This document shows, piece after piece, positions 8,458 through 24,542 of a stretch of DNA of 64,000 nt. This DNA is from an uncultured Pelagibacteraceae bacterium. GTDB taxonomy: Bacteria; Pseudomonadota; Alphaproteobacteria; Pelagibacterales; Pelagibacteraceae. A program made the position numbers and the translations under genes. Every line of letters starts with the position of its first letter. Position 1 is the first letter of the stretch. The stretch is from the NCBI GenBank assembly GCA_902597515.1, contig CACJYB010000002.1, forward strand, positions 5,065 to 69,064. The letters run 5' to 3'. The notes under the pieces were generated by a model. The model searched no databases and was not told the origin of the DNA. It worked only from the letters and a program-made list of their open reading frames with translations.

Positions 8458-9876
8458 ATGAATAAATTAACAAATACAAAAAATATTAATAATTTTTCTT
8501 CTGAAGGCTTTGAATGGAAGCAAGTACAGAATGAAATGAAAAATAAACTAGGCTTAGACGTTTATGAGAGCTGGTTAAAAAAGATTTCTTTTGTTGAAGA
8601 ATTCAATAATTACTTATTATTATCAGTTCCAACAAGATTTATTAGAGATTGGATCACATCAAGGTATTTAGACCAAATATTACAGATAATTAAGGTATTT
8701 AAAAAAGACATTATTAGAATTGAGTTCAAAATAGTTGAAAAAGCTCAAGATATCACCTTAAAAGAAAATAATATTAAAGAGGATAATACTAATGAAAATG
8801 TTTCATTTATAAAAGACTCTTATCTTCAGTATAATCGAATTGATCCAAATAAAAGATTTGATAATTTTATAACAGGTTCGAGTAATAAATTAGCATACGA
8901 AGCTTCTTTAAAAGTTTCAGAAAATATATCTCATTATAATCCACTTTATATTTATGGTGGTGTTGGAATGGGAAAAACTCACTTATTAAATTCAATAGGT
9001 TTAGAGCTTAAAAAAAATAATAAAGTGATGTTTATTTCTGCCGAACGTTTTATGTATCAGTTTGTAAAATCAATTAAATCAAACGACATGGTTAAGTTTA
9101 AAGAATATTTTAGAAATACAGATATTTTATTAATCGATGATATTCAGTTTATAAGTGGGAAAGAGGCTATGCAGGAGGAGTTCTTTCATACATTTAATGC
9201 ATTACTTGATAAGGGATCTCAAATAATCGTATCAGCTGATCGAGCACCTAACAAATTATCAAGAATTCAAGAAAGAATTAAATCAAGATTTTCTGGCGGA
9301 TTAGTTGTTGATATTCAAAAACCAGATCTTGAGCTAAGAAAAAAAATAGTTGAAAAAAAAACCGAAGAATTGAATGCTTTGTATTCTGAACAATTACAAG
9401 TTTCTAGAGAAATTCAAGATTTTATAAGTAATGAGATAACTGGAAGTGTAAGGGAATTAGTTGGTGCAATAAACAGAGTTGTTTCATTTTCAAGAATTTA
9501 CAACAAGGTCCCAAATCTAGCTGAAACTAAAATAGTTTTAAAGGATTTATTAAATTTAGCAGAAAATAAGGTTACAATAGATCTAATTCAGACAATTGTT
9601 TGTAAGTTTTTCAAAATCAGCAAAAATGAAATGTTATCATCGAGAAGATCAAGATATTTAGTTAGACCTAGGCAAACAGCAATTTATTTAACTAAAATTT
9701 TGACTTCTAAATCATTACCTGAAATTGGAAGAGAATTTTCTAACCGAGACCATACAACAATAATTCATTCAGTAAAAACTATTGAAAAGATAAAAGAAAA
9801 AGATCCTGAGATGGTTGATAATATAAATAAATTAAAAAACCAGATTTTATATAATAATAAAGAAAATGAAATTTAA
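8458..9876 (+). CDS. dnaA: Chromosomal replication initiator DnaA
   Basis: YNPLYIYGGVGMGKTHL, DDIQF, QEEFFHTFN, RDHTTIIH. Confidence 0.99.
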   Translation: MNKLTNTKNINNFSSEGFEWKQVQNEMKNKLGLDVYESWLKKISFVEEFNNYLLLSVPTRFIRDWITSRYLDQILQIIKVFKKDIIRIEFKIVEKAQDITLKENNIKEDNTNENVSFIKDSYLQYNRIDPNKRFDNFITGSSNKLAYEASLKVSENISHYNPLYIYGGVGMGKTHLLNSIGLELKKNNKVMFISAERFMYQFVKSIKSNDMVKFKEYFRNTDILLIDDIQFISGKEAMQEEFFHTFNALLDKGSQIIVSADRAPNKLSRIQERIKSRFSGGLVVDIQKPDLELRKKIVEKKTEELNALYSEQLQVSREIQDFISNEITGSVRELVGAINRVVSFSRIYNKVPNLAETKIVLKDLLNLAENKVTIDLIQTIVCKFFKISKNEMLSSRRSRYLVRPRQTAIYLTKILTSKSLPEIGREFSNRDHTTIIHSVKTIEKIKEKDPEMVDNINKLKNQILYNNKENEI

Positions 9877-18132: not shown

Positions 18133-18217
18133 GGGCGAATGGCGGAATTGGTAGACGCGCACGACTCAAAATCGTGTTTCGCAAGAAGTGAGAGTTCGAT
18201 TCTCTCTTCGCCCACCA
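18133..18217 (+). tRNA. tRNA-Leu(CAA)
   Basis: GGGCGAA/TTCGCCC acceptor stem, CACGA-CT-CAA-AA-TCGTG anticodon arm, long variable arm, encoded CCA. Confidence 0.97.
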
Positions 18218-19955: not shown

Positions 19956-20075
19956 ACTATTTAATTAAAATTGTTTATTAACCGCATAAACATTAACTAA
20001 ATTAATAAAAAAAGTTTTATAAAAAAGTAAAAAGTTAAAAATAATTTTTATAAAATTTAACTTTTAATTAAAGAA

Positions 20076-20150
20076 TTGACATAACTTATAGAAAAAAATA
20101 AAAATATGTTAACAGCGAATCAATTTGATTCGTTTAACTAAAAAAGGGAG
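20076..20150 (+). promoter_or_regulatory. Promoter and leader of the small basic-protein gene
   Basis: TTGACA 20076-20081, weak -10 TAAAAA after 17 bp; palindrome CGAATCAA-T-TTGATTCG 20116-20132; SD AAGGGAG 20144-20150. Confidence 0.6.
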
Positions 20151-20156
20151 CTAAAG

Positions 20157-20249
20157 ATGCCTAAGAAAAGAAAAAAAGCGGCAAAGAAAACTAAGAAAAA
20201 AGCTAAGAAAAAAGCTAAGAAAAAAGCAAAAAAAAGAAGAAGAAAATAG
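20157..20249 (+). CDS. 30-aa Lys/Arg/Ala-rich basic protein (histone H1/protamine-like); not in ORF track
   Basis: MPKKRKKAAKKTKKKAKKKAKKKAKKRRRK; SD 6 nt upstream; own promoter and terminator. Confidence 0.8.
   Translation: MPKKRKKAAKKTKKKAKKKAKKKAKKRRRK
20191..20226 (+). repeat. 12-bp tandem repeat CTAAGAAAAAAG x3 inside the basic mini-gene
   Basis: Three perfect copies, in frame (KKKA units). Confidence 0.9.
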
Positions 20250-20267
20250 TAACTTAGTATTCTTTAC

Positions 20268-20310
20268 AAAAAACGCTTCTCATTACAGTTTGTGTGAGAG
20301 GCGTTTTTTT
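20268..20310. terminator. Bidirectional rho-independent terminator between mini-gene and carD
   Basis: AAAAAACGCTTCTCA...TGAGAGGCGTTTTTTT: stem with A-tract before and T-tract after. Confidence 0.85.
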
Positions 20311-21197
20311 TATTCGTCAATTGGCTCGTCGCTATCAGAAATTGGCTCGTCTACAGGTAGCTCACTAGTTGGAGCTTTTGTAGTTGCCACTGGTTGGGCC
20401 TGTCCACCTAAATTCCTTTTTAGTGCTTTATCTAATTTTTTCTGAGTATCCTCTAAAGAAACATTCAAAACAATCTGAAATTCAGACAAAATTCTTTCAT
20501 AGGCTTTTTCAAACAATTGTCTTTCACTATAAGATTGATCAACCATAAGATCATCACCTTTATTTAAATCTCTAACAACTTCAGCCAACTCATATATTTT
20601 TCCTGAAGAGATTTTAGCTTCATATTCTTGTGCTCTTCGACTCCACATTGACCTTTTTATTTTTGGTTTGCTTTTTAATATTGAAATACATTTGTTAACT
20701 TGGTTAATAGTTGCTAACGGCCTTAGGTGAGATTGTTTGTTTACAGGCACCATTCCATTAGCTTTATCTTTTTCAAATTTAATAACATATGTTTCAACAT
20801 CAATTCCCCCAATGTTAATTTTTTTAAATTCGGTAATTTGCCCTACTCCATGTTTTGGATAAACAACATGATCTTTAATCTTGTATTCTCTTTTTTCAGT
20901 TTCTTGTTTTTTAACTTTCTTTATCTCAGGTTTAACTTCGTTTGTTTTTGAAATTCTTAAATTATCTACTTTTGGCTCAGCTGTTGTTTCTGTAACTTTA
21001 ACAGTTTTTTTTATTTTACTTTTTTTAGGTGAAACTTTTTTAACAACTTTCTTGACTTTTTTTATAATTATTTTTTTAGCTTTTTTAGCTTTTTTAGCTT
21101 TTACAACCTTTTTTTTAGAAACTTTTCTTTTCACCTTTTTGTCTGTTTTGCCTTTAAAGATTTTCTTTAAAATATTTTTCGTACTTATTTTGCTCAT
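20310..21197 (-). CDS. carD: CarD/CdnL family transcription factor with Lys-rich N-terminal extension and acidic tail
   Basis: [22 protein letters not shown] (conserved Trp), [18 protein letters not shown]; start uncertain (ATG 21197 or GTG 21134). Confidence 0.9.
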
Positions 21198-21480
21198 TTT
21201 TAAATTTCTCGTGATCCGCAGGTGGATCTTTCTTTTCACTTATGTTAGGCCAGATTTCAGAATACTTTTTATTGATCTCTAACCATTTTTCACTTCCAGG
21301 TTCGGTGTCTGCTTTTATGGCATCGACAGGACATTCTGGCTCGCAAACGCCACAATCTATACACTCATCGGGTTTAATTACAAGCATATTTTTACCTTCG
21401 TAAAAGCAATCAACTGGGCAGACATCAACACAGTCTGTTAGTTTGCATTTAATACAATTGTCGTTAACGATATAAGTCAT
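21154..21480 (-). CDS. fdxA: 7Fe ferredoxin
   Basis: [29 protein letters not shown]...[12 protein letters not shown]. Confidence 0.95.
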
Positions 21481-24369: not shown

Positions 24370-24542
24370 TTCTATCTTTTGTGCTTCTTTTTTTTTACCT
24401 ACCAGATATTGTTACTGCTAAAGAACAAAAATAGACTAAAACATGACCGAATCGGAGGGTAAAAAGTTCTCATTTTCTTTTAAATGTTAGTGAGATTATC
24501 ATAAATAAGATTAATTCTATAACAGTAATTTAATTTAATAAA

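Follow-up and report, generated by a model that had tools for sequence, protein, structure and literature searches.

The closest described parallel to the locus reported here is found in Chlamydia, where the RNA IhtA occludes the AUG of hctA and holds back the genome-condensing protein HctA (Hc1) until it is needed (PMC4355289, PMC3469542). Both the Chlamydia pair (PMC8343073) and the SAR11 pair consist of a small, very basic protein and a hairpin RNA whose loop lies, in the SAR11 case by prediction, over the translation start. There are several differences. No Pfam match links the SAR11 peptide to Hc1 or Hc2; unlike in HctA/IhtA, the peptide is 19-91 aa long and of pure K/R/A type, with a GcrA box at its gene; and the predicted pairing extends over 18-23 nt and covers the Shine-Dalgarno (SD) sequence, whereas that of IhtA comprises 6-7 nt and spares it. 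SAR11 is not known to have a developmental cycle. The SAR11 system is best read as one that would work like HctA/IhtA without being its homologue.

Other described systems resemble single parts of the locus. The H1-tail-like proteins (Hc2 PF07382, Bordetella BpH1, Pseudomonas AlgP and the C-terminal domain of H1) contain, like the SAR11 peptides, a variable number of K/A/P repeats, but the SAR11 peptides stay below the profile thresholds, are much shorter, have Arg-rich termini and lack a globular or acidic domain. The tiny ribosomal proteins bS22/mS38, bTHX and eL41 (20-35 aa) are K/R-rich and escape gene callers as well as trypsin proteomics, as the mini-protein does; however, the latter shows no sequence match to them, varies four-fold in length and has no fixed non-basic residues. 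On the regulatory side, the GcrA/CcrM-dependent sigma70 promoters of Caulobacter (PmipZ type; PMC4647560, PMC9976885) carry the top-ranked word TGATTCG in one or two copies between +5 and +30, as is seen at the mini-gene, although there the two words also serve as arms of a hairpin in the RNA leader and the gene concerned is one for a small polycation. Finally, the Rfam family rhtB (RF01814), described as having a conserved loop and stem and an unknown function (Meyer et al. 2009, PMC2704228), is the same hairpin as the first of the two antisense types discussed below, and a candidate target can now be assigned to it. Judged by its sequence, the mini-gene qualifies as a putative GcrA-type promoter and a putative antisense target, but not as a member of Hc1/Hc2 or of the tiny ribosomal proteins.

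The mini-gene is located on the forward strand at 20157..20249 of the window, i.e. the whole stretch of 64,000 nucleotides that was analysed (GC content 29%), and was characterised from its ORF and by orthologue comparison. The window belongs to Candidatus Pelagibacter, and a 25-nt word taken at the start of the gene has matches in named Pelagibacter genomes. The first-pass annotation had described an ORF from ATG at 20157 to TAG at 20249, and this is what we find: 30 residues, namely 18 K, 4 R and 5 A plus M, P and T, with no acidic or aromatic residue in the translation. The TAG is directly followed by a TAA. The gene fills a gap of 354-355 nt that is bordered on one side by an acyl-CoA synthetase-like gene of the AMP-binding type and on the other by the convergent carD/cdnL gene (20310..21239, reverse strand), whose product has the domains CarD_TRCF_RID and CarD_C and which served as the synteny anchor. 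The earlier remark that most genes in this genome overlap was overstated, as a rough ORF call finds overlaps in about 41% of neighbours; by the same rough call the median intergenic gap is 3 nt and about 4% of the gaps are 350 nt or longer. Among the 7,927 short ATG ORFs of the genome the mini-gene is the only one with a K+R fraction of 0.6 or more, and a comparable ORF appeared in none of 20,000 shuffles of the intergenic gap.

The expression signals named in the first-pass annotation are present. The -35 element TTGACA occupies 20076..20081, and the probable -10 region at 20099..20105 can be read either as TAAAAA (17-nt spacing) or as AAAAAT (18-nt spacing), which would place the transcription start near 20111-20112. 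The SD sequence AAGGGAG (20144..20150), with a 6-nt spacer, forms an anti-SD duplex of -7.8 kcal/mol and ranks among the strongest 6% of the starts in the genome. The terminator is a hairpin at 20268..20309 (-21.3 kcal/mol, z = -5.9 on the strand of the gene and -3.4 on the opposite one); since it folds on both strands, we regard it as a bidirectional intrinsic terminator that is common to the mini-gene and the convergent carD. Similar hairpins are located 3' of the ORF in the orthologous loci. A role as a leader or attenuator peptide was rejected, as no gene lies on the same strand 3' of the terminator.

The neighbourhood deserves a few comments. CarD itself has a K-rich N-terminal arm of about 100 aa and an acidic C-terminal tail, and in other alphaproteobacterial families, at least 6 of the 40 compared, CarD likewise has a K/A-rich arm; a derivation of the mini-gene from this arm was rejected, since the two do not align. 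In Pelagibacter some 10 kb separate dnaA (window 8458-9876, forward strand) from the mini-gene, and a conserved proximity to the origin was rejected on the ground that dnaA is about 170 kb away in genera g12/g17.

The orthologue search was anchored on carD and used a GGAG-type SD as one of its filters; the genomes compared are kin and not independent, and no claim is built on the unpublished genome G182. In the family 16 genera, and in the sister family 3, have an orthologue that is arranged tail-to-tail with carD, which bears out for Pelagibacterales the conserved frame and the in-frame length variation beside carD that the first-pass annotation had proposed to look for. Within the family an orthologue was found at carD in 48 of 50 loci and then in 12 of 13 further ones, the exceptions being two loci at the end of a contig and a third whose copy seems to have an indel. 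In the sister family all 16 carD loci have one (40-91 aa), and in this form a short non-basic stretch at the start precedes the APKKK/PAKKK repeats. All genera examined have the gene as a core gene in single copy. The 71 distinct orthologous peptides are 19-91 aa long, their length changes are in frame, and only 4 columns of the alignment are invariant, even though both termini are conserved (M-A/P-K-K/R... and ...KKRRR). After the start, the peptides of the main family contain nothing but K, R, A, T, P, G, S and V (K 56%, R 19%, A 18%; no D, E or aromatic residue). This is a K/A(P)-rich low-complexity sequence with a variable number of repeats, as the earlier comparison with H1 tails and protamines had it. 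No such gene was present in the carD neighbourhoods of 40 representatives of other alphaproteobacterial families, where about 2.5 kb on each side, i.e. only the surroundings of carD, were covered. Two local observations may be added: in L445 (G043:C6) carD and the mini-gene occur as two inverted identical copies on a single short contig, which probably reflects an error of assembly, and G120 has a 29-aa form of the mini-gene near position 410,500.

Codon usage speaks to the same question. AAG makes up 28% of the Lys codons in the mini-genes as compared to 12% genome-wide, and the mean length of the longest A-run is 7.2 nt, whereas permuting the synonymous codons of each gene among themselves gives 9.1 +/- 0.2 nt, and genome codon usage would give 10.6 nt. 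From what is established about ribosome slippage on poly-A, we infer that this codon choice fits selection against slippage. Open alternative frames are uninformative here, because openness follows from composition: the +1 frame is open in 40 of 41 sequences and two reverse frames in all 41. Frameshift or dual-frame decoding was rejected on the same ground, and also as the A-runs are shortened rather than lengthened. Among 80 named Pelagibacter loci only one copy is frameshifted. Taken together, the 30-codon ORF is a real gene of Candidatus Pelagibacter, and the data support the view that it is a conserved, selected coding unit.

The databases have little to say about this gene. The 30-aa peptide and its aligned orthologues hit none of the Pfam families; an 85-aa form gave only an irrelevant Pfam match (E = 8.5) and a 58-aa form none, and the mini-protein has no match in NCBIfam, PDB or the HMMER representative set. 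Negative profile searches are weak evidence here, because low-complexity sequences are down-weighted. The peptide is absent from a set of 15 billion proteins, as are 11 orthologues that were looked up by exact match, and two sister-family forms (50 and 64 aa) are present in that set, without a name. The ESM Atlas, on the other hand, has a letter-for-letter copy of the 30-aa peptide labelled as a hypothetical protein. The exact copy means that some pipeline has called the gene, which the first-pass annotation had placed below the size of normal ORF calling. The nearest named cluster in the ESM Atlas carries HC2 PF07382 (0.90, 23% of members), which we take as a lead only. The prediction that trypsin proteomics would miss the peptide held, its longest tryptic fragment being 3 residues. 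Contigs from four marine metatranscriptome studies span the mini-gene, two of the pieces without a mismatch, which shows presence and not level or strand. Read depth peaks over the mini-gene in 3 of the 4 metatranscriptomes, in contigs that are summed over strains and in runs that were found with this very stretch. Our literature search found no description of the peptide. In the libraries searched the mini-gene has no family, name or paper, and it is an overlooked gene.

The leader of the mini-gene contains two conspicuous words. The first, CGAATCA at 20116..20122 (reverse complement TGATTCG, inferred position about +5 to +11), includes a GANTC CcrM site; the second, TGATTCG at 20126..20132 (about +15 to +21), is found in the genus Pelagibacter and some others. 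The consensus word of GcrA in Caulobacter is TGATTCG, with the CcrM site GANTC inside it (PMC4647560), and GcrA boxes act from +5 to +30 (PMC9976885). With the start site as inferred above, the mini-gene box lies within the positions given for the word YGAKTCG, i.e. -20/-30 or +5 to +30. The first box (once as CGAATCG) follows TTGAC of the -35 element at a fixed distance of 37-42 nt in 181 of 182 unique leaders from the two families, and is absent in G015. The second is present in 77 of 79 named Pelagibacter loci and is elsewhere replaced by G-U-compatible variants or absent. The two words are also the left and right arm of a 5' leader hairpin (20114-20134), so that conservation of the box could in part be due to its role in this hairpin. 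A role at the DNA level is nevertheless likely, because the CGA bases are invariant even in the 20 leaders in which they are predicted to be unpaired, whereas the right arm drifts.

The box is rare in the genome (39 occurrences in 907 kb), and 13 of the 39 are intergenic as compared to 7.8% non-coding DNA (p ~5e-6; 11 of 37, p ~8e-5, if the two boxes of the mini-gene are removed). Boxes are also found upstream of mraZ, recA, clpP, clpX and smc, and there is one 237 nt before an HU gene (among L469-L472; G000:C1, C4, C25). The boxes at mraZ, smc, recA, clpP, clpX and HU suggest a small putative GcrA regulon in SAR11. Two further intergenic boxes are located in the window, one at 18162-18168 near a tRNA-Leu, 63 nt before the acyl-CoA synthetase-like gene, and one at 24448-24454 between divergent helicase-like and acetoacetyl-CoA synthetase-like genes; the region upstream of ccrM has three GANTC sites. 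Both regulators are encoded in the genome. GcrA keeps the residues R33, N34, I37, G38, K39, H41 and R42 that read the base or its methyl group (PMC5887438). The best PDB match of CcrM is CcrM itself (3e-103), and its NCBIfam score is below the whole-protein cut-off, with just a 220-aa part scanned. GANTC is depleted (1214 sites vs 1686 expected), and its methylation tracks replication in Pelagibacter (PMC9516812). A survey assigned a high regulation probability to few Pelagibacter orthologues of known GcrA targets (PMC7987155). On the basis of the promoter geometry and the conserved box, we are inclined to think that the mini-gene depends on GcrA.

A second layer of control is suggested by complementarity. 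The rhtB RNA has a loop whose sequence is the reverse complement of the mini-gene from the SD across the spacer to the AUG, and a weak minus-strand Rfam match to rhtB falls over the start of the gene. The putative target site at 20146..20166 (forward strand) can form 14 perfect pairs over the SD and the AUG, a mismatch at +4 and 6 more pairs. The rhtB locus was not found in this assembly, which is 69% complete, and was studied in 20 complete congeners. In 19 of them the 14-mer GGGAGCTAAAGATG occurs exactly twice, once in the mini-gene and once in the hairpin, while in the twentieth the hairpin copy carries one change; a reversed control 14-mer does not occur at all. When 990 starts were ranked by the computed duplex with rhtB, the mini-gene came first (-34.2 kcal/mol; next -22.7, mean -6.3). 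A change from Ala to Pro in codon 2 within Pelagibacter is ignored by the hairpin and leaves one mismatch, so no co-variation is seen within this genus. In G120 the rhtB element lies at the coordinates given in PMC2704228, by which G120 appears to be HTCC1062. A coding role for the strand opposite rhtB was rejected, as a stop follows after 3 codons in several genomes.

In genera g10, g12 and g15 the SD-AUG spacer differs, and so does the hairpin, which is found at a non-syntenic locus. This second family, which is missed by the Rfam model, is located after DUF502 on the opposite strand, and its loop can form up to 23 pairs, partly G-U, with the spacer of its own genera. In G015 both the codon-2 and the spacer changes, which are unique to it, are mirrored in its hairpin. 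Cognate duplexes amount to -30 to -38 kcal/mol, those across ribosome-binding-site (RBS) types mostly to -10 to -30. Co-variation is seen in the stem of the second family, where double changes occur in 21 cells as compared to 10 in shuffles, and on the antisense strand promoter-like words stand just 5' of hairpins of either type. A search of 4 complete genomes gave no Hfq, which fits the long pairing of the hairpin RNA with its predicted target. The search for an antisense hairpin was negative in g2, g4, g5, g7, g8, g9, g14, g17 and G026. In G026 the hairpin after DUF502 has been lost and codon 2 of the mini-gene is changed, as would be expected with relaxed pairing, and G005 is discordant, with a g1-type RBS and a g10-type hairpin, perhaps due to a mixed bin. 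In L088 (G025:C36) the DUF502-linked hairpin adjoins a frameshifted integrase-like gene, so integration may have taken place here. That phages carry the RBS or the hairpin was rejected, the 4 viral matches being unrelated genes and the phage BLAST results at chance level. From the complementarity and its uniqueness in the genome, antisense repression of the mini-gene appears probable to us for the genus Pelagibacter.

What might the peptide do? With a net charge of about +22 in 30 aa it is probably disordered, and no orthologue has a hydrophobic or aromatic segment that could serve as an anchor. As the length is free and the sister-family peptides consist of APKKK/PAKKK repeats, non-specific binding to polyanions is favoured over a fixed ribosomal pocket. 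We consider the chances to be about even that the product is a non-specific, H1-tail-like polycation that coats DNA and is under cell-cycle and antisense control. In this mechanism, the peptide would coat and compact chromosomal DNA as do the H1 C-terminal tail, AlgP and Hc1/Hc2. GcrA, bound to the methylated box just 3' of the start site, would stimulate sigma70 transcription, and the output of the mini-gene would follow the state of CcrM methylation, i.e. of replication. In Pelagibacter and in g10/g12/g15, a trans-encoded hairpin RNA of about 55 nt would cover the SD and the AUG without Hfq and block translation; when this RNA falls, e.g. on slowing growth, the peptide would accumulate and condense or silence the nucleoid. 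The two control layers, which the first-pass annotation had missed, suggest a protein that is made conditionally rather than a constitutive packing protein. The peptide would come on top of SMC and of the three HU/IHF-family genes that SAR11 has in any case, probably as a conditional addition. A more specific version, a minimal chromatin switch with a protamine/H1-tail-like peptide of 20-90 residues, in which transcription gated by promoter methylation (CcrM/GcrA) and Hfq-independent gating by an antisense RNA, encoded at two different loci depending on the genus, restrict compaction to a given phase of the cell cycle or of growth, is a tentative proposal that we regard as doubtful.

Composition cannot separate DNA from RNA or polyphosphate as the target, and that DNA is the main one we hold to be an evenly balanced proposition. 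A polycation binds the most abundant polyanion, which is RNA, and a product that binds RNA or the ribosome under the same controls (bS22/mS38/eL41-like, a coat of rRNA or mRNA, or a hibernation aid) would have the size and K/R content of the tiny ribosomal proteins, while conserved termini and a strong SD would also suit it. Peptides that bind in a ribosomal pocket keep their length and specific residues, whereas the SAR11 peptides gain and lose repeats between 19 and 91 aa around 4 invariant columns. The gene, moreover, is outside the ribosomal operons, its product has no PDB match, and antisense repression and a GcrA box suit a stoichiometric part of the ribosome poorly. The fixed pattern of a pocket binder is in fact shown by a separate SAR11 micro-ORF. 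We therefore think this explanation rather unlikely. The micro-ORF is located outside the window at L473:329-412 (G000:C41:2028-2111, forward strand), between mnmA-like and metC-like genes, and encodes a basic peptide of 27 aa that starts with M-S/G-YPKKHRGRRK; its length and non-basic residues are fixed, it is present in 15 of 18 congeners, and it has no Pfam or NCBIfam match. It appears to be a better candidate for a tiny ribosomal protein than the mini-gene. Further short basic ORFs encode 28 aa in G037 (L096) and 24 aa in G048 (L050:3212-3286).

If only charge and length are constrained, as it appears, the peptide might also be a general counter-ion, a condensate former or a store, i.e. 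a substitute for polyamines, a binder of polyphosphate or a nitrogen-rich reserve, the computed content being 2.0 N per residue. This we judge to be improbable, as 30-90 residues made by the ribosome are a costly store, the Ala/Pro spacing is kept as in H1 tails, and two layers of control imply that dosage matters.

A small peptide with an Hfq-independent hairpin forming 18-23 pairs over its RBS also recalls a type I toxin-antitoxin pair, in which a toxic cationic peptide and its trans antisense RNA would act in dormancy or abortive infection. The type I toxins that act on membranes have a hydrophobic segment, which is missing here; in addition, the mini-gene is a core single-copy gene in all examined genera whereas about half of these yielded no hairpin, and the two loci are unlinked. 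We find such a role very improbable, even though HctA offers a parallel in that it kills E. coli in the absence of IhtA (PMC3469542). Least credible of all is that the transcript acts as an RNA, be it a decoy for the rhtB hairpin or a purine-rich sRNA, around an incidental ORF: the openness of the +1 and reverse frames does deprive an open frame of its weight, but the ATG stands at SD distance, an in-frame stop comes right after the Arg-rich end, synonymous swaps, broken A-runs and the single frameshift among 80 loci point to translation, and the ORF persists in genera in which no hairpin was found.

The H1-tail-like reading brings together a GcrA-type box on the mini-gene, a second hairpin family that mirrors another RBS, and a bacterial H1-like polycation with putative antisense control. 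For the SAR11 order, the mini-gene adds a core gene that trypsin proteomics cannot detect. The orphan RNA rhtB, whose function has been unknown since 2009, gains a testable target, and with it comes a candidate case of sRNA control that does without Hfq in a streamlined genome. The mini-gene is also a concrete candidate for a GcrA/CcrM target in Pelagibacter, for which a link between GANTC methylation and the cell cycle has been described but no target genes were known. If it is true that the peptide compacts DNA, the finding would bear on how chromosomes are packaged or silenced in ultra-small, slow-growing cells.
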